DNA of 29,353 nt from a virus: positions 1 through 29,353 of the IMG/VR virus record IMGVR_UViG_3300045988_109387. One strand, given 5' to 3'. Positions 1-27,119 of the stretch are shown in pieces. A program made the position numbers and the translations under genes. How positions within the stretch are numbered: the stretch's first letter is position 1; every line of letters starts with the position of its first letter. Below the pieces are notes generated by a model. It was not told the DNA's origin. It made no database searches and saw only the letters and a list, made by a program, of their open reading frames with translations.

Positions 1-55
1 AACAACCGGGGCTTTACCATATCAGACCGACCACGACAACGTCGCCGAAGTCCAC
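1..55. repeat. Terminal direct repeat, copy 1 (identical to 29299..29353); circular-assembly overlap
   Basis: Bases 1-55 (aacaaccggggctttaccatatcagaccgaccacgacaacgtcgccgaagtccac) match 29299-29353 base for base. The ORF at 22..927 and its terminator run across the junction. Confidence 0.9.
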
Positions 56-927
56 GCACCCGTCTCATACGTGATATCCTTAAGAGGTCTCACATACAAT
101 CCAGTCTCATCCAACTGAAAACCACTATACTCAACACCAACAGCCGGAACATTCAAATCAGTCACATTCGGCTTCACATACTCCGGGAACGTCAAAATCT
201 GACTCTTCGACCACGCCTTCGCCTCCCATGCGGGGCCTCTCGTCGCCTTAACGGCCATACTGACAATATTACCGGACATCGAACACTCATACCAGACAGA
301 CCAATCCTTCGCCCATTGGCCCTGACCCAACCGAATATTAGTCAATGACAGCCACTCATCATTGATACGACGATACCGCTGGCCATCGGACGATGTAACG
401 GCTTCAACCCCATTGACAGCCCAAACCGCGATCAACTGATTCCAATCATTCACCTCGATCGTGCCATCAACATGGATCTTCGGAGCCACATCAGACACGG
501 TACCAGCCGTAACCCTAGCGATGACCAGACCATTGATCTGCGCGTTGGGAATACTGGCATCCCACGACTGCAACCACGCGCCCGGAGTCTCACCATGAGA
601 CAGACTCGGATCATAAGCGGCGACCACAATCTTATAATCACCCGTCGAATCAGCCACGTTCACCGTCATAGGCTCCGTTACCGCATAAGTGTACGAGCCG
701 GTCTCATTCCACGGTCTCACGGTACCGCAATGAGGCTTAACGGTGACAGTCAACCCGTCAATCGTCACCAACGGGCTAGGACTGCCATACCGGACACCCT
801 GAACGCCACCGAAAGCAGAACCATCGGACGGGACCAAGAACGGATTGACAACACGCCGATAATCATCAGCCGTATAAGTCGGAAGCCCGTTCAAAGCAGT
901 CAAAGGATGCAATACGATATCCGTCAT
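22..927 (-). CDS. Putative tail fibre / receptor-binding protein (last gene of the tail module)
   Basis: 301-aa ORF from the track. It is the last gene of the minus-strand tail module, after the Tal-like and fibre-like genes, and is followed by a terminator hairpin plus T-run across the circular junction. I recognise no named motif, so the function is by position only. Confidence 0.45.
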   Translation of the reverse strand: MTDIVLHPLTALNGLPTYTADDYRRVVNPFLVPSDGSAFGGVQGVRYGSPSPLVTIDGLTVTVKPHCGTVRPWNETGSYTYAVTEPMTVNVADSTGDYKIVVAAYDPSLSHGETPGAWLQSWDASIPNAQINGLVIARVTAGTVSDVAPKIHVDGTIEVNDWNQLIAVWAVNGVEAVTSSDGQRYRRINDEWLSLTNIRLGQGQWAKDWSVWYECSMSGNIVSMAVKATRGPAWEAKAWSKSQILTFPEYVKPNVTDLNVPAVGVEYSGFQLDETGLYVRPLKDITYETGAWTSATLSWSV

Positions 928-943
928 AAATCATTCCTCACAA

Positions 944-1618
944 TCAATTCTTCGACGTGGACACACCCATTTTACCCACCACGGAAGATAGTCGGGAAAC
1001 CTCCGCCCTAAGCTCGTCCACCCCATCCATAGCCTCCTGAACCAAACGCAAAGCAGCCACACTCAACCTCGGATAGTCAACGCCGACCGGATTCCCCTCA
1101 TCATCGTATTCGCAGAAGAAGCCAAGCCCGGCATCATCCAAATCTTCAGCCAGAAACCCGACAACCGGCTGAGCGTCATCAAGCTTCAGGTTCAGATCAT
1201 CATTCAGGAAATACACCTTCCACCCCAACCGACGGAGAGCGCCAACGGGAATGAACCCATCAGCATCAGTGACACCCGACACCGAAGACGCCGACGAACA
1301 ATCAACCCCCAACACGCCATCATGAAGACAATAAACCGGCTTCCTATAAGTCGACGAAAGCGGATTATCATACATGTTACGAACACCGGTACCACCATGA
1401 GCAGACACCACCACCGCATTTGCCTCGCCAACATCAGCCTGATTCTGCTTAGTGGCCAACGATTCAAAATCCTTCTCGACATCAGAAACACGTTCACCCA
1501 ATCGACTGACACTCTTACCGACACTAGCCAGCAGTTCCCGCAACTGACGGTGAACCTCCGCGAACTGACGGGCGGTAGCATCCACCCCATCGAGAGAAAA
1601 CCTGAACTTACTTTGCAT
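944..1618 (-). CDS. Tail-fibre-like protein with a C-terminal intramolecular chaperone (peptidase S74-like) domain
   Basis: 224 aa. The N-terminus looks coiled-coil (RQLRELLASVGKSVSRLGERVSDVEKDFESL). The C-terminal stretch VVGFLAEDLDDAGLGFFCEYDDEGNPVGVDYPRLSVAALRLVQEAMDGVDELRAEVSRL fits the pattern of the tail-fibre auto-chaperone domain. Confidence 0.5.
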   Translation of the reverse strand: MQSKFRFSLDGVDATARQFAEVHRQLRELLASVGKSVSRLGERVSDVEKDFESLATKQNQADVGEANAVVVSAHGGTGVRNMYDNPLSSTYRKPVYCLHDGVLGVDCSSASSVSGVTDADGFIPVGALRRLGWKVYFLNDDLNLKLDDAQPVVGFLAEDLDDAGLGFFCEYDDEGNPVGVDYPRLSVAALRLVQEAMDGVDELRAEVSRLSSVVGKMGVSTSKN

Positions 1619-1627
1619 CAGAACCTC

Positions 1628-2734
1628 CTACTGCAATACAGGCGTAATAGTCCACACGCCACTAAAATCAATGTCATATCCGACGACACGAGCCTCACCA
1701 TGATCAAACCCATCGAAACGACCATCATCATCGGAGACGGTCCACGCGACCACATCCCCGGGCCTCCACTCCTCGTAAACGATCGGAGCGGCCAACAGGC
1801 TCAACGTCATGCTTATAGTATTCGTACCATCCCGCAATTGCCGCAACGAAGCCGAAGCGTGAGCATTCAAAGTCTCTTTCTGCGTAATGCTCAACGACGG
1901 ATGAACAACATGCTCCACAACAGGACGATAAGACTGTTCGGCCACCATCGTATCGGAACGCAACAGGGTTTCGCCGGTCGTATCCCCGACCGCCACGACC
2001 ATGTTCGCACCATAGCCAGCCGTATAATCCTCCAATACCCTGAAAGACGTCATCACGCTCTCCTCAAACGTCGTGACCGGCGTAACGGAACCTATCCTAT
2101 CCGCAACCGTCAAAACCGGCAGGTACCCGCCATCAACGGCCCTCCATGACGTACACCATTCCGGGCCATTCTGCACGTTCGACAACTCCTGAAGAACACT
2201 CAACAACGTCTTATCGGAAGACTCCTTATACGTCCTATCACGCTTAACGGAGCTATGTTTCGTCTCCACGTCGAACACGAACCGGTGATCCTTAAACGTA
2301 GACTTCACGAGATCATCCACGATCCGAGTCTGCCCCCAAGCGGAATAGGAATGATCCCCCACATACACGCTATCGAAATAATGCTCAACGGTCGCCACCG
2401 TGAGCGTCAACCCATCGCCCTGCAACGTCCGTTCACGTTTAACGACAATACCACCCCATAACACCGTCGAACCACGAACCAAAAGAATCGCCACTCCATA
2501 CGGGATCGTAGCCTCATTCCAATTGGACGGAACATTCGCCCACGGAAGCGTCATCGTCTCACTCGTCGCCTCCTCAAACCGATACGAAAGCTTGGAAACC
2601 TGCAAGTCCGGAAACTCAGCCAATACGATCCCACTGGTCAAAGACACGGCAAGAAACTGAAAACCTGCAGTATCCCACATGACGCGACCACGACCGAAAA
2701 TAGAAACCCCATTCAAAACATTAGTCGAACCCAT
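1628..2734 (-). CDS. Tal-like minor tail protein / tail tip hub
   Basis: 368 aa, immediately downstream of the Dit-like gene in the canonical TMP-Dit-Tal order of siphoviruses. There are 12 nt between the upstream stop codon and this ATG. Confidence 0.55.
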   Translation of the reverse strand: MGSTNVLNGVSIFGRGRVMWDTAGFQFLAVSLTSGIVLAEFPDLQVSKLSYRFEEATSETMTLPWANVPSNWNEATIPYGVAILLVRGSTVLWGGIVVKRERTLQGDGLTLTVATVEHYFDSVYVGDHSYSAWGQTRIVDDLVKSTFKDHRFVFDVETKHSSVKRDRTYKESSDKTLLSVLQELSNVQNGPEWCTSWRAVDGGYLPVLTVADRIGSVTPVTTFEESVMTSFRVLEDYTAGYGANMVVAVGDTTGETLLRSDTMVAEQSYRPVVEHVVHPSLSITQKETLNAHASASLRQLRDGTNTISMTLSLLAAPIVYEEWRPGDVVAWTVSDDDGRFDGFDHGEARVVGYDIDFSGVWTITPVLQ

Positions 2735-2746
2735 GGCATTCCTCCT

Positions 2747-3637
2747 TCACAGGTAAGCCGGGTAGAACGAAACCGTCATCCGAGCCGTATTTGAATACTC
2801 ACCAGCATTGAAACCCCAAACATTCAACCCGGGTTCCGCCTGACTCCACTCACGACGAACGACACGACCACGGGCCGGATCCGTACCATCAACCAGAATC
2901 TCATGCGTCACACCATTGATGGTCACATAATGGGCACTACCAAGGCTCATATTAAAAGCAATGGTATGCCCACTCCCCACATGCGATACCTGCGGGTTGA
3001 CGACAGGACCGTCAATACGGATCATCATCGGGCTGGGAGCTGTACCATCATTCGACAGGGACACCTTGCCGGATATGACAGTCTCGCTCCACACCCATTG
3101 AGACAACGATTCGGTGGGATCCTCGAACCTGTAAGGGAAGGTCATACCCCCCGACGCGTTCGGTAGGAAGGAAGTACCGGACACGGGATCCAACCCATGC
3201 AGGTACGGGCTCAAAGACGTCAACCCAAGACTGAAACGGAGAATATTCACCCCATCCCATTTGATCAACGGTGCTGGCCCAGACTGCCATACCCGTACCT
3301 GACGGCCAATCTTCCCCAATCGTGCGATCAGCAGCATTCCACCAGTATCCAAAACGCTCTTAAACGCATTCCACGAAGTAATGCATGATTCCGTACAGCG
3401 GCCGATGATATGACCTTCGATCGTAATGGTCCGGCCTTGCAAGCGTGGTAGGTTACCATACCAGCCATCAGTCATGGTCTTTTCGCTCGTTTTCAACGTG
3501 GACGCGACACCGTCGAACAAGCCGGACACGTCCTGAAACGTCACATGCCATTCGCACCCGTTATCATCTACCCCATACAAGGGAAAACCATTCAACGTCA
3601 ATTGAAGATCGCGAGGATCAGTAGGAAACATGCTCAT
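2747..3637 (-). CDS. Distal tail protein (Dit-like)
   Basis: 296 aa, the first gene after the tape measure. Both position and size are typical for Dit. Confidence 0.55.
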   Translation of the reverse strand: MSMFPTDPRDLQLTLNGFPLYGVDDNGCEWHVTFQDVSGLFDGVASTLKTSEKTMTDGWYGNLPRLQGRTITIEGHIIGRCTESCITSWNAFKSVLDTGGMLLIARLGKIGRQVRVWQSGPAPLIKWDGVNILRFSLGLTSLSPYLHGLDPVSGTSFLPNASGGMTFPYRFEDPTESLSQWVWSETVISGKVSLSNDGTAPSPMMIRIDGPVVNPQVSHVGSGHTIAFNMSLGSAHYVTINGVTHEILVDGTDPARGRVVRREWSQAEPGLNVWGFNAGEYSNTARMTVSFYPAYL

Positions 3638-3655
3638 AAAACCATCATACCCTTA

Positions 3656-5707
3656 TCACACGTAGCAGAAATTAATCATTCGTACCGTTTCACGAGCCGC
3701 CATCGTCGGATCGGAAGCATTAACGGTAATCGGAGCCGACACTCGAGGACCACTGTTCGTGTCCGCTAAAACCGGAGACGAGACAGGAAGACCTGCCGGG
3801 CTGTTCAACAGACTGTTCGGCATGATGTCAGCGACCATGTGTTGGACCGGGTTCACAGCCAAACTCATGTTCGCTTCAACGCCCTTGCCTAAACCGGCCG
3901 GGATCATCTTGCCTATCTCGTCACGGAACACGCGAGACGGGGAATGAATACCCAACGCGGACTTAGCGGCGTTCACGACATTGGCGGCCGCGTTCTTAGC
4001 TGCCGACACTGCGCTGCTGATAGCGTTCTTAATACCGTTGACCAGACCCATGATGATGTTCTTACCGGCATCCAACAACCAGTTACCGGCCCCGTTGAAC
4101 GCGCCCTTGATCTTACCGCCGATACCCCGTACGGTGTTCATGACACTGTTGACACCATTCGACACGGCACTGGTGATACCATTCCACGCACTTGACACCA
4201 GTCCCTTGACCGAATTCCAAACACCAGTCCAATAAGCGGCGATGGAGCCCATGACCGAACTGATCACGCCTGAAACAGCGTTGATAGCGGCTGACACGTT
4301 GGCTTTAATACCATTCCATACGGTTGTGATGACATTGCCGATACCATTCCACACGCCATCCCAATCACCCTGCACCGCCGCCAGTACGGTAGTGATAATC
4401 GCGTTGATGACATTCATCACCGAACTGATGACCGTCTGAATATACGGGAACACCGCATCGATGGCACCCTGAATGGTTGACGCGACCGTCGTAAACGCGG
4501 CCTGAACAGTCGGCAACGCCGCCTGTACCACCGCAGCCAGATTATTGATGACCGGCGTGACAGTGGTCATGACCGTCGTCCCAACCTCCGTGAGTTTCGC
4601 GACCAGTGACCCCAACACCGGGGTGAAAGTTTGGAACGCAGCACCCAACACAGGCATGATCGCACTGCCGAGATTCTGACAGGCTTGCATGAACTGTTGC
4701 AAAACAGGCAACAATTGGCTGGACACGATCTGGGCTACCGGAGCGAAAGAAGACTGGAACACGCTACCGATCTGCTGTAAAACCGGACCAGCCGACGATA
4801 CGAGACCCTTGAACATTCCGGGCAGACTGCCGATACCATCAGCGAGTACGCTCATTCCCTCCGTCAACGGGCCTTTGAACGAGTCCAATATTTGTACGCC
4901 CACATTCACGACGGACGCTTCCAAATTACCCATGGCACCCTCGATGGTTTGAGTGCTCGTGGCCGCTTCCTTCGCAGCATCGGTCATACCCAAATCCATG
5001 ACGGCCTTATTGAATTCCTCGGCCGATATCTTACCCTTGGCCATCGCATCACGAAAATCACCCGTGTATGCGCCGTTCTTCTTCATGGCTTCCTGAAGTT
5101 TGCCGGATGCGCCCGGGATAGCATCACTTAACTGGTTCCAGTTTTCGGTCGTGAGCTTGCCGGCACCAGCCGTCTGAGTGAGTACCATGCCAACTGATCG
5201 GAACGTGTCCGCGTTACCGCCGGCTACCGCGTTCAGGTTACCCGCGGCTTCAGCTAAGTCGGCGTATCCGTCCACGCCGTTCGCTGCCAGTTGGGCTGTC
5301 GTGTTGCGAATGTCGGACAGGTCGTATACTGTCTGGTCGGCGTATTTTTGCGTGCTTGCGGTAAGTTTGTCGATGGTGCTTGTGTCCAAGCCAGCGAAAG
5401 ACAATGTGCTAGCGAACTTCTGAGCACTGTCGGAGGCTTCGATGATACCACCGCTAAGATTCGAGATAGCGTCCACGGCCATATTAACGCCAGTGGAAAC
5501 CAAACCACCCATCGCTCCCGCGATAGCAGCGAATTTACCGGCACCCCCGGAAGCCTTGGTGGACGACTTATCAATCTGGTCCATGCCTTCGCCGGCTTGG
5601 CGAGCGGATTGTTCTATCTGTCGGCTACCGGATTGAATGGTTTTAACACCGGCTTCCCAATCACTGGTGTTAATTTCAGCGTCGAGTATGAGCGTGGAGT
5701 CAGCCAT
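3656..5707 (-). CDS. Tape measure protein
   Basis: 683 aa and Ala/Gly/Ser/Val-rich. It has repeated W-x-G motifs (VWNGIGNVITTVWNGIKANVSAAINAV...WTGVWNSVKGLVSSAWNGITSAV) and follows the G/T chaperone pair. Confidence 0.9.
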   Translation of the reverse strand: MADSTLILDAEINTSDWEAGVKTIQSGSRQIEQSARQAGEGMDQIDKSSTKASGGAGKFAAIAGAMGGLVSTGVNMAVDAISNLSGGIIEASDSAQKFASTLSFAGLDTSTIDKLTASTQKYADQTVYDLSDIRNTTAQLAANGVDGYADLAEAAGNLNAVAGGNADTFRSVGMVLTQTAGAGKLTTENWNQLSDAIPGASGKLQEAMKKNGAYTGDFRDAMAKGKISAEEFNKAVMDLGMTDAAKEAATSTQTIEGAMGNLEASVVNVGVQILDSFKGPLTEGMSVLADGIGSLPGMFKGLVSSAGPVLQQIGSVFQSSFAPVAQIVSSQLLPVLQQFMQACQNLGSAIMPVLGAAFQTFTPVLGSLVAKLTEVGTTVMTTVTPVINNLAAVVQAALPTVQAAFTTVASTIQGAIDAVFPYIQTVISSVMNVINAIITTVLAAVQGDWDGVWNGIGNVITTVWNGIKANVSAAINAVSGVISSVMGSIAAYWTGVWNSVKGLVSSAWNGITSAVSNGVNSVMNTVRGIGGKIKGAFNGAGNWLLDAGKNIIMGLVNGIKNAISSAVSAAKNAAANVVNAAKSALGIHSPSRVFRDEIGKMIPAGLGKGVEANMSLAVNPVQHMVADIMPNSLLNSPAGLPVSSPVLADTNSGPRVSAPITVNASDPTMAARETVRMINFCYV

Positions 5708-14843: not shown

Positions 14844-15254
14844 TTACTGGCTGTCTTTACTGTTTGTTGGGTTGTCGTCGAAGACTTCGAGGGTGATGTT
14901 CGGCGGTTCGTATCCGGTGACGTTTACGTCGGTGGATTGGCGGGCCTTGCCGTCGAGTCGGTCGATATAGTCGGCTGCAACCTTTGGGTCCTTGGAGGCG
15001 TTGAGGATGTGTTTGATGGCGATTTTCTGGACCATGGTGAGGTTCGGGTCTTTTATTTTTTCGTTGAATTCTACGGCGGTGAGCTTGCTGAATTCGCGGA
15101 TCCAGCGGGTGGGGCTGGTGTCTTTGGTCCACGAGCCTCGGTCCTGTGGGCGTTCTTGGAATCCGCCTTTGCCTGTTGGATTGCATACTCCGCTGATGAT
15201 TCGGCCGCGGTGGTCTCTTACTACTTCTGTCATATTGCCTATTTTAGCAGGCAT
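14844..15254 (-). CDS. terS: Terminase small subunit (putative)
   Basis: Sits immediately upstream of terL. It has a basic N-terminus containing NPTGKGGFQERPQD. I chose the ATG at 15254. The track's GTG at 15269 lies inside a terminator stem, and the ATG at 15233 is an alternative start. Confidence 0.55.
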   Translation of the reverse strand: MPAKIGNMTEVVRDHRGRIISGVCNPTGKGGFQERPQDRGSWTKDTSPTRWIREFSKLTAVEFNEKIKDPNLTMVQKIAIKHILNASKDPKVAADYIDRLDGKARQSTDVNVTGYEPPNITLEVFDDNPTNSKDSQ

Positions 15255-15921: not shown

Positions 15922-16728
15922 TTAGTTGGTGGCTGTTCCGAGGGCTTTGGTCAGGAGGGTTTCTCCGATCCGTTTGTGGAGGAGGGCCAGTCCTTTTCTG
16001 GTGATGCGTACGGTTGGCGGGAAGGCGAATTTCGTACCGTCCGTTTTGGTACCGTGTTTTGTGGACATGACCATTACGAGGTGCCCGGCCGTGCAGTGTT
16101 TTGCTGTCGCATGCCATGAGCCATTGGTTTTGTAGATCCAGTCGTTGTCGCTCATCCATTCGCGTAACTGTTTTTCGCTGATTGGTGTGCCGGAGTTGGA
16201 GAGGATCTTTGCTGCGTCGCGGACAAGCAGTCGATCTTCCACGTTGGTGAAATCGTCAAGCGCTTGTGCTTTTGGTTCCAGTTCCTTGATTTGAGCGTCT
16301 TTGGTTTGGAGCTGTTGGTTCTTGAGTCCGATGGTCTTCTGTGCGACAAGCACGGCCTTCGCGAGGATGGCCATATCATCGTCCGTGTCCGTGGTTGGGA
16401 TGTAGCCGCCAGTACTGCGAATCTGCGGCAACACTTCATGCGTCACCCAACGTTGGAATTCCTTGGCCTCCGGTTTACGAGACTTCATCACGAGACGGTA
16501 GAAGCCAGATTCAGAGATGATGTATGCCTGTTGCCTACGGCCAATCGAATCGATGACTTCAGTAGTACTGAACTCGTCATCATCGAACATTTTGACGGTC
16601 TCGGTTGGATTACCGAGGTTAAGGATGCTCATGCAATCCTTGAGTACAAGCCACGGTTCACCGTGCTCGTCGGTCAGCGTGCGCATTGGTATGTCGTTGA
16701 AGGTGAATGTTTGGATTTCGGTGTTCAT
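15922..16728 (-). CDS. Bro-N / KilAC-domain antirepressor
   Basis: 268 aa. The N-terminus matches Bro-N (FTFNDIPMRTLTDEHGEPWLVLKDCMSILNLGNP...EAKEFQRWVTHEVLPQIRSTGGY). The C-terminal half resembles the KilA-C/ANT domain. Confidence 0.8.
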   Translation of the reverse strand: MNTEIQTFTFNDIPMRTLTDEHGEPWLVLKDCMSILNLGNPTETVKMFDDDEFSTTEVIDSIGRRQQAYIISESGFYRLVMKSRKPEAKEFQRWVTHEVLPQIRSTGGYIPTTDTDDDMAILAKAVLVAQKTIGLKNQQLQTKDAQIKELEPKAQALDDFTNVEDRLLVRDAAKILSNSGTPISEKQLREWMSDNDWIYKTNGSWHATAKHCTAGHLVMVMSTKHGTKTDGTKFAFPPTVRITRKGLALLHKRIGETLLTKALGTATN

Positions 16729-16786
16729 TTTGGTGCCTTTTTTGGTGTGATTGCATAGGTTGTTTGTCTACTGTGGTGCCGTTAAA

Positions 16787-16812
16787 GGGGTGGATGATCC
16801 ACCCACCCCCTT
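16787..16812 (-). terminator. Weak stem-loop after the HTH gene
   Basis: The minus strand reads GGGGGTGGGTGG-atcat-CCACCCC followed by only TTTAAC. The short U tract makes this uncertain. Confidence 0.3.
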
Positions 16813-16835
16813 AAGTCGACTGGTTGGTTGTGGAG

Positions 16836-17015
16836 TTACTTGTCTGACGAGTCCCCTTCTTTGTCGGGGATTACGTCCGGGTCGAGGAAGTAGCATCGGC
16901 CGACCTTGACTGCGTGGAGTCGTCCCTCGCGGATGAAGCGGCGGACGGTCTGGATGTTGAGCTTCCAGCGGGATGCGTATTCGGGAACTGTTGCTGTGTA
17001 ATCTTTAGCGTTCAT
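16836..17015 (-). CDS. Excisionase-family/MerR-like HTH DNA-binding protein (59 aa), apparently leaderless
   Basis: EYASRWKLNIQTVRRFIREGRLHAVKVGRCYFLD fits the excisionase-type HTH pattern. I chose the ATG at 17015 because it has no SD and lies 7 nt after a TATAAT box. The track's TTG at 17051 is the alternative. Confidence 0.6.
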   Translation of the reverse strand: MNAKDYTATVPEYASRWKLNIQTVRRFIREGRLHAVKVGRCYFLDPDVIPDKEGDSSDK

Positions 17016-17022
17016 AGGTCTT

Positions 17023-17051
17023 ATTATATAACGGTTCGAGTGCCTGTACAA
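17023..17051 (-). promoter_or_regulatory. Sigma-70-type promoter: TTGTAC-N17-TATAAT
   Basis: On the minus strand the -35 TTGTAC is at 17051..17046 and the -10 TATAAT at 17028..17023, with an exact 17-nt spacer. The ATG at 17015 begins 7 nt after the -10. Confidence 0.6.
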
Positions 17052-17574: not shown

Positions 17575-17620
17575 AAAAAATAATACCCACCCGGGCATTC
17601 GCTTGGGTGGGTATTATTTT
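17575..17620. terminator. Bidirectional intrinsic terminator
   Basis: A 13-16 bp stem (ATAATACCCACCC / GGGTGGGTATTAT) with a 12-nt loop, flanked by an A-run upstream and TTTT downstream. Confidence 0.75.
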
Positions 17621-17669
17621 ATCCAATGAAAGGCAGTCGGGAAGGGAAACCAAAAAACTTACCGACATC

Positions 17670-17675
17670 GATAAT
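17670..17675 (+). promoter_or_regulatory. Possible -10 (GATAAT) upstream of dut
   Basis: Lies between the terminator and the dut RBS. It lacks the TG extension and the upstream motif, so support is weaker than for the other promoters. Confidence 0.3.
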
Positions 17676-17697
17676 CATAACACAAAGGAGAAACACC

Positions 17698-18108
17698 GTG
17701 GAAATCATGCTGGACAACGGAGCGCACATGCCGTCACGAGGCCACGAGACCGATGCCGGACTGGACCTGCGCACGCCGAAGGCCGTGACGGTACCGGCGT
17801 ACGGAAGCACGACAGTCGATACTGGAGTGCACGTGACGTTGCCTCACGGGTGTGCCGGACTGCTCGTCAGCAAGAGCGGCCTCAACGTCAAGCACAGCAT
17901 CACCAGCACCGGACTCATCGACGAAGGCTACACGGGAAGTATCGTAGTCAAGCTCTACAACAATGGATGCGAGGACTATGAGGTAAAAGCCGGTGATAAG
18001 ATCACGCAGCTGGTCGTGATCCCAGTAGTCGATGAGTCGTTGGAACAGGTCTCTGCGTTCAATGCGACGGAGCGTGGAGATAACGGCTTCGGGAGCACCG
18101 GAAGGTAA
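17698..18108 (+). CDS. dut: dUTPase (trimeric dUTP diphosphatase)
   Basis: I chose the GTG at 17698 because AAAGGAG lies 7 nt upstream. The motifs DAGLDLR, GLIDEGYTGSI and RGDNGFGSTG are present. Confidence 0.85.
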   Translation: MEIMLDNGAHMPSRGHETDAGLDLRTPKAVTVPAYGSTTVDTGVHVTLPHGCAGLLVSKSGLNVKHSITSTGLIDEGYTGSIVVKLYNNGCEDYEVKAGDKITQLVVIPVVDESLEQVSAFNATERGDNGFGSTGR

Positions 18109-18111
18109 GCC

Positions 18112-18447
18112 ATGTGGAGCGGACGGAGCAAATACCATGCGAAGAAAACCGTCGTCGACGGCATCACCTTCGACTCGCGTAAGGAGGCCGACAGGTATCT
18201 CGTCCTGAAGGGCATGGAGGAGGATGGAGCCATCGAGGGCCTTCACAGACAGGTCCGCTATGAGCTCGTGCCGGCCTTCGACGTGGACGGCAGACATTAC
18301 CGGCCCGTCTATTACGTGGCTGACTTCGTCTATGTGGAGGACGGCAAAACGGTAGTCGAGGATGTGAAAGGCATGAGGACCGACGTGTACAGGCTCAAGA
18401 GCAAGCTCTTCGCACGACGGTATGGCATGAGTATCAAGGAGACGTGA
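18112..18447 (+). CDS. DUF1064-family protein (PD-(D/E)xK-like nuclease fold)
   Basis: 111 aa. SKYHAKKTVVDGITFDSRKEADRY...YYVADFVYVEDGKTVVEDVKG matches the DUF1064 pattern. Confidence 0.75.
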   Translation: MWSGRSKYHAKKTVVDGITFDSRKEADRYLVLKGMEEDGAIEGLHRQVRYELVPAFDVDGRHYRPVYYVADFVYVEDGKTVVEDVKGMRTDVYRLKSKLFARRYGMSIKET

Positions 18448-18465
18448 CGGTCTAGGAGCGTGCGT

Positions 18466-18518
18466 GGCCCCGGTTGGTCTTGGGAAGAGATTCCCGGACT
18501 GGCCGGGGCCTTGTTTTT
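18466..18518 (+). terminator. Intrinsic terminator after the dut-DUF1064 unit
   Basis: GGCCCCGG (18466-73) pairs with CCGGGGCC (18503-10). The interior has wobble-rich pairing, and TTGTTTTT follows. Confidence 0.65.
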
Positions 18519-18586
18519 CAGCCATTCCTGACATGGTAAGGAGGTGGGCAGAAAACCGACTACCTTCAATATTTGAGATTGACCCT

Positions 18587-18650
18587 TCAATACCTAGGTA
18601 TCGACCCCTTCGATACCTAGGTATCGAACCCCTCGATACTCAAGTATCGA
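18587..18650. promoter_or_regulatory. Three 18-bp dyad-symmetric sites at exact 23-bp spacing (operator- or iteron-like)
   Basis: O1 is TCAATACCTAGGTATCGA (18587-18604). O2 is TCGATACCTAGGTATCGA (18610-18627), a perfect palindrome that extends to 20 bp at 18609-18628. O3 is TCGATACTCAAGTATCGA (18633-18650). Each is preceded by CCC(C)T. Confidence 0.7.
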
Positions 18651-18660
18651 ACAAAGACCC

Positions 18661-18716
18661 CTCTACTAGAGACCCTTCTACTAGAAGATCCTTCCACTAG
18701 ACCCTTTTAAGTAAGA
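18661..18716. repeat. Second set of short dyad repeats (CTCTAcTAGAG, CTTCTAcTAGAAG, plus two degenerate copies)
   Basis: The two clear copies are at 18661-18671 and 18675-18687, and the degenerate ones at 18691-18701 and 18704-18716. The period is ~15 bp, and each copy is again preceded by CCCYT. Confidence 0.55.
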
Positions 18717-18717
18717 C

Positions 18718-18775
18718 GGCTCCCGAGGGGAGCCGCGTGCGGCCCGAGGGGAGCCAATCCCAACCCAAAGGGATT
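18718..18775. repeat. GC-rich hairpin / direct-repeat cluster
   Basis: A hairpin GGCTCCC-gag-GGGAGCC lies at 18718-18734. CCCGAGGGGAGCC is repeated at 18722-34 and 18743-55. A second hairpin, AATCCC-N8-GGGATT, lies at 18756-75. Confidence 0.55.
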
Positions 18776-19249
18776 GGGAGCCGAGAGCGGTGAGGGGCCT
18801 AGCCTCGATGGCTTAGGTGACTGAGGCATGGAGCCATGGAGTCTGACCTGATGTCTTCCATGCTTCTTCCATGGCTCTGAGCATCGAGGTGGATACCGTC
18901 TGGGCTTCGATGCTGCCCTTCGGGCCTTGGTCTCGGTTCCCGACCTGTGGGGAGCATGGAGGAGAGTTGGTCGGCGCTTGGCTTAGGTGGCCCTCTCACG
19001 GCTTGTCGTTCTCGATGCTTTTTCGGTGCTTGTTTGGTCTGGAACGTCGCTTTCGTGCGTAAAGGCCTTTTTGACGGGCTGTCGTATGTAAGTCTTGACG
19101 AGTTACCGGAGTTGCCGGGAAAATCGGTCTGAAGGGCCTTTACGTGCGTTCTAGAGGCATATGCGGTAGAAAGCATGGGAGAGGAATGCCTTGAATGGAA
19201 GACTGAGCCACGCTGGCAGGCCCGAACTCAATGCCTTTTCCGAGACTTG

Positions 19250-19258
19250 TGGTATACT
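19250..19258 (+). promoter_or_regulatory. Extended -10 promoter PC (TGGTATACT)
   Basis: Lies ~35 nt upstream of the 19293 ATG and has the same TGnTATAYT form as the other family members. Confidence 0.45.
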
Positions 19259-19292
19259 TAAAGCAACACCAACACTAAGAAAGGATCACGCA

Positions 19293-19538
19293 ATGGATAT
19301 CTACGAAGCCATCAACAATCTCCTCGTCAAGAGGTATGGCGTCCACTTCAGCAAGGAAGGCGAAGAAAAGTCACGAAAGTTCTTCGACGGACTGTGTGCG
19401 AAGTTCGGTGACGAGGAAGTATCCGAAGCATGGGAGATCGCATGCGGGAAGTACGACAATCCGGTGACCGCGCTTTCGAAGCTCGGAGGCATCCTCTACA
19501 ACCGCAGCATCTTCAGCTCCTTCATCGAGGAGGCCTGA
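19293..19538 (+). CDS. Hypothetical protein (81 aa)
   Basis: The ATG at 19293 has AAGAAAGGA upstream. The longer track ORF starts in non-coding DNA. It is tightly coupled to the next gene. Confidence 0.55.
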   Translation: MDIYEAINNLLVKRYGVHFSKEGEEKSRKFFDGLCAKFGDEEVSEAWEIACGKYDNPVTALSKLGGILYNRSIFSSFIEEA

Positions 19539-19539
19539 C

Positions 19540-19830
19540 ATGGGAAAGCTGTCATTCGACGAAGGCCTCGCCGAAGAGATAGGCCTCAATGCGGCAATCA
19601 TCCACGAACGCCTTTCCGACCTCTGCGCAGAAAAGGCGAGAAACAACGCCGACTACCACGACGGGTCATTCTGGATTCGAATCACACGGAAAGAACTACC
19701 CGGACTTTTCCCGTACATGCCTCCGACTGCCGTCATCAGGGCGATGAAAAAACTGACAGACGGAGGCTACGTCCTCGTCGGCCATTACGATGAAGACCAC
19801 AACGTCACCAACTGGTACACTGCAACCTGA
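19540..19830 (+). CDS. Hypothetical protein, possibly winged-helix
   Basis: 96 aa, starting 1 nt after the upstream stop codon (one intervening base). LPGLFPYMPPTAVIRAMKKLTDGGYVLV resembles a wHTH recognition region. The function is uncertain. Confidence 0.45.
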   Translation: MGKLSFDEGLAEEIGLNAAIIHERLSDLCAEKARNNADYHDGSFWIRITRKELPGLFPYMPPTAVIRAMKKLTDGGYVLVGHYDEDHNVTNWYTAT

Positions 19831-20003: not shown

Positions 20004-20882
20004 ATGAAATACACGATCGAAGGCTTCAGCCAAGAAGCGGCGCTGTCCATGCAGGCCACCATCACCGAAAACGGAAACACGAAAACCATCAAACTCGACA
20101 TCGTCGACCTGACAATCCTCCGCTGGATCGTCGACTTCTACCCGAACATGAAAAAGACCATCATCGACGGCACGGAATACGCATGGCTCGACTACACGGC
20201 CTTCATTGAAGACATGCCCCTTCTAGGACTCAGCAACCAGTCACTGTACAAGCGGTGCATCAAAATGGTCCAGCTAGGCATACTCAAGCACAAGACAGTA
20301 CGCAGCAAGGGCACCTTCTCTTATTATGGCTTCGGCCCGGAATACCCACACCTCGTCAGCCGCAGCAACAAGACGGCCAACGCACCGGCATCAACCCAGA
20401 ACCACGCCCCCTCCACAGAACACGACCCATGGGCAGACACTACAACCGCAACCACCGAACAACCCCAACTCCCCATCGCCGAACCGGAACCCCAGCCACA
20501 ACCGAAAAAGACCCGCAAAGCCAAAAGCTTCGACGACATCATCGACGCCTACACCAACGACCCGACGACCAAGGACCTGCTCAGAGCATGGCTCCAAAAC
20601 CGCAAAGCCAAGCGCTCAGCCATGACCGACAGGGCCATCAAAAGCTGCATCGACAAACTCGACAGGCGCGCACAGGAAAGCCATATGAGCGTCAACGACT
20701 ACCTCGATGAGGTCATCTGCCGCGGCTGGAGCGCCTTCTTCCCAATCGAAAACTACCGAAACAACGGATACCAGCAAAAACCTCGGCAGCAATCCCAGCA
20801 GCCACACTGGGACCTCACGGAAGAGGAGCTGCGCAGACAAAAGGAAGCAGACGACGAGTGGATGAAAAACTGCGTCTTCTAA
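20004..20882 (+). CDS. Replisome organiser / DnaD-like replication initiation protein
   Basis: 292 aa with a wHTH-like N-terminus and a Pro/Gln/Thr-rich linker. The C-terminal segment LLRAWLQNRKAKRSAMTDRAIKSCIDKLDRRAQESHMSVNDYLDEVICRGWSAFFP is typical of phage replisome-organiser or DnaD-type C-terminal domains. It lies upstream of the DnaC-like loader. Confidence 0.65.
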   Translation: MKYTIEGFSQEAALSMQATITENGNTKTIKLDIVDLTILRWIVDFYPNMKKTIIDGTEYAWLDYTAFIEDMPLLGLSNQSLYKRCIKMVQLGILKHKTVRSKGTFSYYGFGPEYPHLVSRSNKTANAPASTQNHAPSTEHDPWADTTTATTEQPQLPIAEPEPQPQPKKTRKAKSFDDIIDAYTNDPTTKDLLRAWLQNRKAKRSAMTDRAIKSCIDKLDRRAQESHMSVNDYLDEVICRGWSAFFPIENYRNNGYQQKPRQQSQQPHWDLTEEELRRQKEADDEWMKNCVF

Positions 20883-20959: not shown

Positions 20960-21808
20960 ATGGAAAACGGAATCGACATCATCAACACCATCAACGCACG
21001 AGCTGCACGCCAATACGCGGAACACGAAGGAGACTACCGCAACGAAGACGGCCTTCTCATGTGCGGCAAATGCCACTCAGAGAAGGAGTGCGTCCTAACC
21101 AGGCCCGACGGCACCACGAAAACCGTCCACTGCGCATGCGACTGCAGTGTCGCACAGCACAAAAAGGAAGACGAAGAAAAACGCAAGCGCGACCGCATGC
21201 AATACCTCGACAGCATGAGACGCACCGGCTTCCCAGACGCGGAAATGCGCGAATGGGCCTTCGCCAAATCCGACCACGGCGACCAACGGAACGAAACCAT
21301 CGCCCGCAAGTACGTGACGAACTTCGACGCCATGCGCGAACAAGGCACCGGACTGCTCCTCTGCGGTCAGGTAGGCACCGGCAAAAGCTTCCTCGCGGCA
21401 TGCATCGCCAACGAGCTCATCAGCCAAGGCACTCCATGCCTGATGACCAATTTCAGCCGTCTCATCAGCCGGATCAGCGAAAAATTCGGAGGAGACCAGA
21501 AATACCTCGACAACCTCAACCGCTTCGACCTTCTCATCATCGATGATCTGGGAGCGGAACGCGATTCGGACTTCACATGGGAGAAGGTAATGAACGTCAT
21601 CGACGCACGATACCGTGCCGGATTGCCGATCATCATCACCACCAACCTCGGTCCGAAGGACTTCGCCGATCGTGGAGACATCCGCCGTCAGCGCGTCTTC
21701 AGCCGTTTGAAGGAGATGTGCATCTGCCTTGAAGTCAAAGGCGAGGATAGGAGAGGGAAGAAAATGCAAGACAAGCTGACATCGGCCAGACCACTCCTCG
21801 GCATCTGA
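20960..21808 (+). CDS. DnaC/IstB-like AAA+ helicase loader with an N-terminal Cys-rich region
   Basis: 282 aa with Walker A GQVGTGKS, Walker B LLIIDDLG and sensor IIITTN. The N-terminus has CGKCHSEKEC...CACDC. Confidence 0.85.
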   Translation: MENGIDIINTINARAARQYAEHEGDYRNEDGLLMCGKCHSEKECVLTRPDGTTKTVHCACDCSVAQHKKEDEEKRKRDRMQYLDSMRRTGFPDAEMREWAFAKSDHGDQRNETIARKYVTNFDAMREQGTGLLLCGQVGTGKSFLAACIANELISQGTPCLMTNFSRLISRISEKFGGDQKYLDNLNRFDLLIIDDLGAERDSDFTWEKVMNVIDARYRAGLPIIITTNLGPKDFADRGDIRRQRVFSRLKEMCICLEVKGEDRRGKKMQDKLTSARPLLGI

Positions 21809-26792: not shown

Positions 26793-27119
26793 ATGGCAAC
26801 GGAACCATTCACCGCCATCATCAAAGGCGAGAAAGTCACGATCCACCAGAACGCCTATACCGGACTCTTCTATGCCATCACACGCAACGGCAGTCATACC
26901 CCAGTCGACTACGGGCTCATAAGAACGCAGACGACCAGCCTACAGCGACTCAAATACTGGCAACACCGTTTCGGATACACCCAAGCCGAACTCGCAAAAC
27001 TGATCCACGTATCCAGTCCGACCATCGTCATGATGTGGGAAAACGGGTTAAGACACCCACGCAAGGAATACCGACAGCGAATCAATGCCGAGCTCGGCGG
27101 CGACATCTTCTTTGAATGA
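26793..27119 (+). CDS. XRE-family (Cro/C1-type) HTH protein with an N-terminal extra domain
   Basis: 108 aa. FGYTQAELAKLIHVSSPTIVMMWENGLRHP is a typical HTH_XRE motif. Confidence 0.7.
   Translation: MATEPFTAIIKGEKVTIHQNAYTGLFYAITRNGSHTPVDYGLIRTQTTSLQRLKYWQHRFGYTQAELAKLIHVSSPTIVMMWENGLRHPRKEYRQRINAELGGDIFFE

Follow-up and report, generated by a model that had tools for sequence, protein, structure and literature searches.

A probable iteron-type replication origin and its proposed initiator in a group of uncultured ~30-kb phages

The 29,353-bp stretch of viral DNA analysed here (IMG/VR record IMGVR_UViG_3300045988_109387, positions 1 to 29,353; hereafter the window) carries, at the start of an 845-bp noncoding gap without a credible open reading frame (ORF) and at the head of its replication module, a compact array of repeats that probably forms the initiator-binding part of a phage replication origin. 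Judging from the sequence comparisons presented below, this origin would be of the iteron type and similar to lambda ori, and its reader would be Rep, an initiator protein encoded about 1.35 kb downstream. A first-pass annotation of the same DNA had likened the repeats both to a lambdoid tripartite operator and to the dyad iterons of an origin such as lambda ori, to which a dimeric initiator binds; the second likeness is supported by the location of the sites in the replication module, by their conservation and by their covariation with a helix of Rep. Computed in this study are the anatomy of the repeat cassette, its conservation, the iteron-helix covariation, a winged-helix prediction for Rep and the modestly low duplex stability of the short repeats that follow the iterons.

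Anatomy and conservation of the repeat cassette

The cassette, situated just after a transcription terminator, and the initiator gene are laid out as follows:

18563-18582, no strand: degenerate first iteron, CCTTCAATATTTGAGATTGA, 21 bp upstream of iteron 1
18583-18651, no strand: three 23-bp iterons, CCCYTC + GATAC-CTAG-GTATC + GA, the proposed (predicted) sites for dimers of the Rep winged helix-turn-helix (wHTH)
18655-18713, no strand: three short repeats (AGACCCYTCTACTAG) plus a degenerate fourth, low in GC, the proposed DNA-unwinding element
20004-20882, plus strand: Rep, replication initiator or replisome organiser, 292 aa, matching phrog_678 ('replication initiation O-like') and also phrog_6451

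Direct reading of the sequence gives three 18-bp dyads, TCAATACCTAGGTATCGA (18587-18604), TCGATACCTAGGTATCGA (18610-18627) and TCGATACTCAAGTATCGA (18633-18650), whose starts are separated by exactly 23 and 23 bp, and a repeat search returned three 23-nt units beginning with CCCTT or CCCCT at 18583, 18606 and 18629. Together these bear out the exact 23-bp phasing of three palindromic sites described in the first-pass annotation, as well as its perfect middle palindrome, which extends over 18 bp. The half-site that it had placed at about 18563-18571 is also real, being the left part of the degenerate fourth unit, and an equivalent degenerate first copy occurs in the related genomes L002, L011 and L077. 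Three units at 23 bp with a degenerate fourth at 21 bp make up the regular repetition expected of an iteron origin. When the dyad consensus was searched with up to three mismatches (<=3), these three sites were the only ones in 29,353 bp, against an expectation of 0.00 (100 shuffles); GATACnnnnGTATC gave three matches in the window where 0.41 were expected.

The second dyad-repeat family, earlier described as having a spacing of about 15 bp, likewise exists, with members AGACCCCTCTACTAG at 18655, AGACCCTTCTACTAG at 18670, AGATCCTTCCACTAG at 18686 and a degenerate AGACCCTTTTAAGTA at 18699, spaced by 15, 16 and 13 bp. Taken alone this family is statistically unremarkable (4 matches at <=3 mismatches vs 2.1 expected); its position and sequence are kept in all relatives with the same type of initiator (type-I Rep), and in type II and type III phages other short repeats take the place of the type-I ones. 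The claim that every unit of both families is preceded by CCCYT stands for 6/7 full units and fails for the third short repeat, which has TCCTT.

A megablast search of 17600-19600 against GenBank phages found no match, and IMG/VR together with metagenome assemblies yielded many relatives of ~29-30.5 kb. The comparison set consisted of 34 related ~30-kb metagenomic phage genomes, the window counted, and the layout of the gap is identical in 34/34: a terminator, a spacer of ~50-75 nt, iterons, short repeats, a palindrome, a conserved block of ~550 bp, and then a promoter and the gene for an 81-residue protein (p81). Relatives have two to six iterons or more, in units of 21-23 bp; the three or four short repeats that follow are 13-16 bp long and lie where GC content is low. 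Absence of the repeats from syntenic relatives had been named beforehand as evidence against such a role, and the repeats are present in all relatives examined. Two side observations concern repeat arrays. In one public scaffold (L082:1799-1898) a run of N falls within the iteron array, and assemblers seem to break on these repeats, such that copy numbers in metagenomic contigs may be underestimated. A more distant phage, L008, whose Rep is 46% identical, carries 24 tandem copies of a 24-bp unit at 41-712, ~3.3 kb upstream of Rep, which may be coding sequence or an iteron-like array.

Covariation of the iterons with the Rep N-terminal domain

Six types of Rep N-terminal domain correspond to six types of iteron across the 34 genomes, the iteron class of each genome having been read from the cassette nearest the conserved block. 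The pairs are as follows:

Type I-A, helix LS[NKRH]QSLYKRC.KM: iteron GATACnnnnGTATC; the window and 11 others
Type I-B, helix LGKRAL[SF]DRL[RK]KMET: iteron GGAAGnnnnCTTCC; 5 genomes
Type IIa, Pfam HTH_36: iteron GCCGCAAAATCAG, in inverted orientation in L012 and L020; 9 genomes
Type IIb: iteron CCCTCAAAATGAGGG; 4 genomes
Type IIc: iteron GCTGCAAAATTTACAGC; 3 genomes
Type III: iteron AAATGAATTTGGGTG; 1 genome

Within type I, the helix region of Rep occurs as two discrete alleles among the 120 homologues listed, differing at 11 of 16 positions in residues 75-90. Allele A (SNQSLYKRC) accompanies GATAC..GTATC dyads in 12/12 genomes and allele B (GKRALSDRL) accompanies GGAAG..CTTCC dyads in 5/5, and the exact probability of this perfect split is 1.6e-4. 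These totals include contigs picked blind, by protein identity alone, of which the four with B-allele proteins all had B iterons (4/4) and the eight with A-allele proteins all had A iterons (8/8). A simpler rule relating Rep residue 78 to the base at half-site position 7 was tried and gave no consistent pattern.

The residues that separate the alleles fall in a domain whose fold class, a wHTH spanning residues 1 to ~120, is supported by structure prediction. AlphaFold2, run on Rep 1-125 with a 31-sequence alignment, returned a model with a mean predicted local distance difference test score (pLDDT) of 92.4, in which N-terminal beta-hairpins are followed by a long helix (33-48), two further helices (64-70 and 78-90) and a beta-wing (94-110). 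Helix 78-90 is predicted to be the recognition helix, the third of the wHTH. All of the top 50 Foldseek matches to the N-terminal domain were winged-helix DNA-binding regulators or the DnaD N-domain (2v79), with template-modelling (TM) scores of 0.4-0.46 and E>=0.03 throughout; the DnaD N-domain matched with a probability of 0.96-0.98 and a TM score of 0.42-0.46. No Pfam family was matched by the Rep N-terminal domain. Annotators of entries in nr had named close homologues 'RepA N-terminus', and membership of the RepA_N family is not supported by the Pfam, PDB sequence or Foldseek searches: Rep gave no match to Pfam RepA_N (PF06970) even at E<=1, a PDB sequence search was without a match, and the RepA_N structures (4PTA/4PT7) are not among the Foldseek top 50.

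Simple linkage of neighbouring sequences does not account for the pairing. The difference between within-class and between-class nucleotide identity is close to nil on either side of the cassette (DUF1064, -1.2; the ~550-bp block, -0.1 and +1.7; p81, -0.7) and again at the Rep 3' end (-0.5) and in the helicase-loader gene (DnaC, -0.5). A clean division into the two classes is confined to Rep residues 63-100, with identities of 74-97% for A-A pairs, 89-100% for B-B pairs and 47-55% for A-B pairs. As judged from these alignments, the association between iteron and helix is kept over ~1.4 kb of freely recombining DNA, the winged-helix gene at 19540 included, as functional coupling predicts.

Other candidates for the binding protein, several of them proposed in the first-pass annotation, do not behave in this way. 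The 96-residue winged-helix protein encoded at 19540 (wHTH96) is rejected: it is 90-92% identical between the A-iteron window and the B-iteron phages L069 and L070, 70-73% identical between L077 (A) and L003/L073 (B), and absent from L001, L076, L079, L081 and L082, some of which share the same iterons. The XRE protein (26793), the excisionase (Xis)-like helix-turn-helix (HTH) protein (16836-17051) and p81 show no association with iteron class, and among 42 window proteins compared across 18 loci no other protein tracks the A-type dyads. Among the suggested binders, the product of the gene at 20004 is favoured, its predicted recognition helix covarying with the iterons. As a separate observation, L009 has a type III Rep (L009:3626-4474) whose N-domain, joined there to the Rep C-domain, is of one family with wHTH96; by sequence, the free-standing copies look like detached initiator N-domains that are shuffled, or go missing, independently of iteron class.

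Rep initiators as a group are mosaics, in which an N-domain (I, IIa-c or III) is joined to one of two C-domains, that of the window or Pfam Phg_2220_C (for example, L052:10736-11557 and L060:8001-8858). The window-type C-domain occurs with a loader 78-93% identical to that of the window and Phg_2220_C with one that is 45-50% identical, a pairing of types which supports recruitment of the loader by the C-domain. The short repeats follow a further pattern: they are TCTACTAG for types I-A and I-B, GATACTCTAG for types IIa-c and CAGTTGTAAC for type III, and they also do not track the C-domain, p81 or wHTH96. One hypothesis is that the short repeats are read by a second surface of the Rep N-domain.

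The origin model and its rivals

Beyond the cassette itself, the noncoding gap and its borders hold four further features:

18466-18518, plus strand: Rho-independent terminator, GGCCCCGG...CCGGGGCC followed by TTGTTTTT, which ends the dUTPase/DUF1064 transcription unit
18717-18735, no strand: GC-rich palindrome CGGCTCCC-GAG-GGGAGCCG, directly 3' of the short repeats
18707-19240, no strand: conserved ~550-bp noncoding block, 74-88% nucleotide identity, all relatives
19250-19258, plus strand: extended -10 element TG-n-TATACT (TGgTATACT) of the replication operon, a consensus match only

A terminator scan placed a hairpin and T-run at 18492-18508, in the same place in all relatives, and to judge by its sequence this terminator would shield the repeats from upstream transcription. 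Directly beyond the short repeats, the GC-rich palindrome falls within that part of the region where the duplex is most stable (78% GC at 18720-18760); the A, B, C and D cassettes all retain it, and in the E and F cassettes a different palindrome, GAAAGAAAGAT..ATCTTTCTTTC, occupies that place. The -10 hexamer at 19253-19258 lies ~600 bp downstream of the repeats, GTGGTATACTT being invariant in one alignment of relatives, and is followed by a ribosome-binding site, AAGAAAGGA, and an ATG at 19293. No promoter-like site was found on either strand between 18520 and 19090.

The ~550-bp block is common to all relatives irrespective of initiator or loader type; the phages that share it have initiator N-domains of three unrelated kinds and loaders of two types. 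It holds many invariant inverted repeats, such as GAGCCATGGA..TCCATGGCTC and CGTAAAGGCC..GGCCTTTACG, its plus strand is rich in G+T, and the lengths of the indels in its alignment are not multiples of three. A structured RNA was considered and rejected for this block: RNAalifold gave a covariation term of -1.1 with compensatory changes at 7/140 pairs and a structure conservation index of 0.3-0.67, and column-shuffle z-scores were significant on both strands only for the first ~240 palindrome-rich columns. The signal looks like DNA-level inverted repeats and the case for RNA is not convincing; the block may be part of the origin. Rfam searches of the window and seven relatives, at gathering and permissive thresholds, gave noise-level matches only.

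Many relatives have an extra noncoding block of ~430 bp between the ~550-bp block and the p81 promoter, which the window lacks (L001:2585-3010, minus strand; also L006, L009, L010, L012, L013, L020, L058 and L064-L067). Read on the minus strand it ends with a hairpin and U-run terminator, and an RNAalifold analysis of seven sequences found compensatory changes at 16/120 pairs, with no Rfam match. By sequence, this extra block is a candidate for a novel structured RNA transcribed divergently to the replication operon.

The model that follows is inferred in all of its steps, from the binding of Rep and the opening of the short repeats to the loading of a helicase and activity as an origin. Rep dimers would occupy the three to four dyad 23-bp iterons through the recognition helix of the N-terminal wHTH, and the bound array would promote opening of the adjoining low-GC stretch with its 13-16-bp TCTACTAG repeats, an opening bounded by the GC-rich palindrome. 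The conserved C-domain of Rep would then bring in the DnaC-like loader (20960-21808), which in turn would recruit a host helicase. The short-repeat stretch has 42% GC vs a window mean of 54% and gives way to the 78% GC segment; in every cassette type it has 31-46% GC vs 54% for the genome. Ranked by duplex stability, 18675-18714 is the eighth least stable 40-mer of the window (z=2.89), and 18561-18600, which holds the degenerate first iteron, is the sixth (z=2.97).

Several points weigh against this reading. Support for it is computational throughout, and the sampled genomes are mutually related, so that the counts of matching pairs are not fully independent. The short repeats track the fold type of the N-domain and not the helix allele. 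The low-GC stretch is only modestly easy to melt (z about 2.9), and other places in the window are less stable still. GC skew has no origin signature, its cumulative curve reaching a maximum, not a minimum, near 19-20 kb; the skew appears to follow transcription. Finally, five phages with type II or type III Rep (L009, L011, L058, L061 and L068) retain between one and three A-type dyads, perfect palindromes among them, distal to the matching cassette, and these dyads may be relics, or another reader may exist.

The persisting dyads can be set beside a further observation. Tandem double cassettes occur at L009:1340-1860, L013:1390-1990, L061:1350-1730, L011:2050-2320, L058:8690-8900 and L068:9540-9760, each with a reduced distal cassette first and the cassette matching the resident Rep next, and duplicated 5' pieces of the conserved block flank the distal cassettes in L009, L013 and L061. 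Such arrangements look like the footprint of replacement of origin/initiator modules by recombination, although a second role is possible. A more elaborate version of the origin model, which we put forward tentatively and consider rather doubtful as a whole, would have a composite origin in which an interchangeable address cassette sits on the universal ~550-bp core. Within the cassette, the Rep recognition helix would read the iterons and another surface of that N-domain the short repeats specific to its fold type, perhaps in single-stranded form; the core would load helicase or prime synthesis, and the relic cassettes (L009, L011, L013, L058, L061 and L068) would stem from recombination within the core.

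Among the rivals to an origin, it is unlikely, if still the best of the remaining explanations, that the dyads are transcriptional operators, bound by Rep or another regulator and controlling the replication operon or a neighbouring transcript, and not sites of initiation. Three ~18-bp dyads at regular spacing do resemble OR/OL, as the first-pass annotation pointed out, and initiators of iteron plasmids often autoregulate through their own iterons, an arrangement that would also predict covariation with Rep. However, neither strand has a promoter-like element over the sites or next to them; a terminator precedes them, and the sole conserved promoter element comes ~600 bp farther downstream. 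The flanking genes are those for DUF1064 and for p81 and Rep, with no adjacent HTH repressor, which agrees with the earlier remark that no divergent repressor is present, and there is no repressor/cro pair. The XRE protein at 26793 does not track the class of site, iteron number is variable, and in type II phages the same slot holds non-palindromic direct repeats. These results do not support a lambdoid tripartite operator.

It is quite improbable that the repeats are a partition centromere, a pac site for the small terminase or arm sites for an integrase or excisionase. Centromeres and pac sites typically have phased arrays of direct or dyad repeats, and an excisionase-like HTH protein (16836-17051) is encoded 1.5 kb away. 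Against these, a scan of the window proteins found no ParA, ParB, ParM or other partition gene, and no integrase or recombinase; the terminase genes lie ~3.5 kb away on the other strand; and the repeat class is tracked by Rep 63-100 only, not by the putative small terminase (14857-15186), the Xis-like HTH or other proteins. The least credible alternative is that the palindromes act as RNA or single-strand hairpins in processing, termination or priming, for although each 18-bp palindrome could form a 7-bp stem in a region rich in inverted repeats, a conserved asymmetry (TCAATAC...GTATCGA) leaves an uncompensated A-C mismatch in most copies, the units of L006, L076, L081 and L082 are poor palindromes yet well-conserved direct repeats, the type II iterons in the same slot lack dyad symmetry, and the sites have a terminator upstream, no detected promoter and no Rfam match.

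Genome setting and comparison with known systems

The window has the appearance of a siphovirus genome of ~30 kb that is close to complete. Its minus strand encodes the tape measure, head and protease proteins, the portal, the large terminase, SSB, an antirepressor and the Xis-like HTH protein. From ~17.3 kb the plus strand encodes a small membrane protein, dUTPase and DUF1064, then the 845-bp gap, and thereafter p81, wHTH96, Rep, the DnaC/IstB-like loader, Erf, an exonuclease and the XRE protein. The genes around Rep in the replication operon are as follows:

19293-19538, plus strand: p81, 81 aa, first gene of the operon, 71-89% identical in all relatives
19540-19830, plus strand: 96-aa winged-helix protein (wHTH96), of the PHROG replication-initiation N-terminal type (phrog_11233, E=1.3e-18)
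20960-21808, plus strand: DnaC/IstB-like AAA+ helicase loader (Pfam IstB_IS21, 6.5e-15; phrog_50, 6.7e-58)

Pfam and PHROG searches with p81 gave no match. No relatives of p81 were found in GTDB genomes, so that nothing here points to a prophage. The antirepressor (Bro-N/KilAC) and the excisionase-like HTH protein are encoded within 15922-17051; an integrase or CI-type repressor was not detected in the window, nor was a tRNA. The nearest cultured matches to the large terminase come from honeybee-gut Bifidobacterium phages, BlindBasel1 and BlindUri1, at 49% identity, and the noncoding gap of BlindBasel1, when checked, was without such a cassette. With respect to base composition, positions 1-5000 of the window have negative GC skew and positive AT skew, like the plus-strand gene block; in that segment it is the minus strand that carries the long ORFs, the PHROG-supported tape measure (3656-5707) among them, and the minus-strand block at 6-17 kb has a skew opposite to that of positions 1-5000.

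With these results, a likely origin can be named, along with the initiator that would be its partner, for an abundant group of uncultured ~30-kb phages, seen in many metagenome assemblies and apparently derived from the gut, whose replication proteins are without Pfam annotation. The proposed mechanism is a textbook one; what is added is a modular layout of cassette plus core and a clean, natural specificity-swap series, in which two helix alleles pair perfectly with two dyad sequences in genomes that otherwise recombine freely. This series could be used for studying how winged-helix initiators change specificity and for designing orthogonal pairs of origin and initiator, and the relic cassettes record swapping of replication modules in phages like that reported for PLE satellites.

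The palindrome of lambda ori and the roles of the domains of the O protein are well known and provide the first point of comparison. Lambda ori has four 19-bp iterons, each an imperfect inverted repeat, and an AT-rich tract (PMC7466680). The cassettes described here similarly comprise three to four iterons, or up to six, which are ~18-19 bp long, imperfectly dyad-symmetric and spaced by about two helical turns, ahead of a low-GC tract that may melt easily. A palindrome comes next, and as in lambda the N-domain of the initiator is predicted to read the iterons and the C-domain to recruit the helicase loader. However, the window cassette is found outside the initiator gene, in the noncoding DNA ~1.35 kb upstream of it, no relation to the lambda O sequence is detectable in the Rep N-domain, the proposed melt region consists of ordered 13-16-bp repeats instead of a plain AT tract, and the loader is DnaC/IstB-like.

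A second likeness is to the RepA_N systems of the pSK41 and pTZ2162 plasmids and of the Vibrio cholerae PLE satellites. In PLEs the origin is noncoding, and its semi-palindromic iterons are bound by the RepA_N initiator (PMC7145576); among PLEs the origin and its cognate N-domain are swapped together while the C-domains shuffle independently (PMC8263062; PMC7145576). A noncoding origin, here a proposed one, and co-exchange of origin and N-domain are features shared with the window and its relatives; the window iterons differ in having no central poly-A tract. Rep is thus not established as a member, by sequence or by fold, of either the lambda O or the RepA_N family, and from the comparisons the system would appear to work like both types of origin.

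In iteron plasmids and at oriC, initiators make sequence-specific contacts with one strand of the unwinding element. RK2 oriV, with its initiator TrfA, and Escherichia coli oriC resemble the window in placing an iteron array before three to four repeats of 13-16 bp in a low-GC stretch. That the short repeats of the window are specific to initiator type is reminiscent of initiator contact with one strand of the unwinding element (reviewed in PMC5043065). The window differs from these systems in having no DnaA boxes near the cassette and short repeats that are only moderately AT-rich.

Finally, the gene order of the module is that of phages of Gram-positive bacteria. SPP1, with G38P and oriL, and lactococcal and streptococcal phages encode a two-domain organiser and then an IstB/DnaC-like loader (PMC5737612 for SPP1), as the window does with Rep and the loader gene that follows it; their modules also have an origin of direct and inverted repeats beside the replication genes, and organisers of the HTH_36 and Phg_2220_C kinds occupy the slot of Rep in relatives of the window. 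The window departs from these modules in that its Rep N-domain matches none of the Pfam families. In SPP1 and many lactococcal phages the origin is located inside the organiser gene, unlike the cassette of the window. With its two-domain initiator and adjacent loader, the module is one of the class of phage replication modules that combine a replisome organiser with a DnaC loader.

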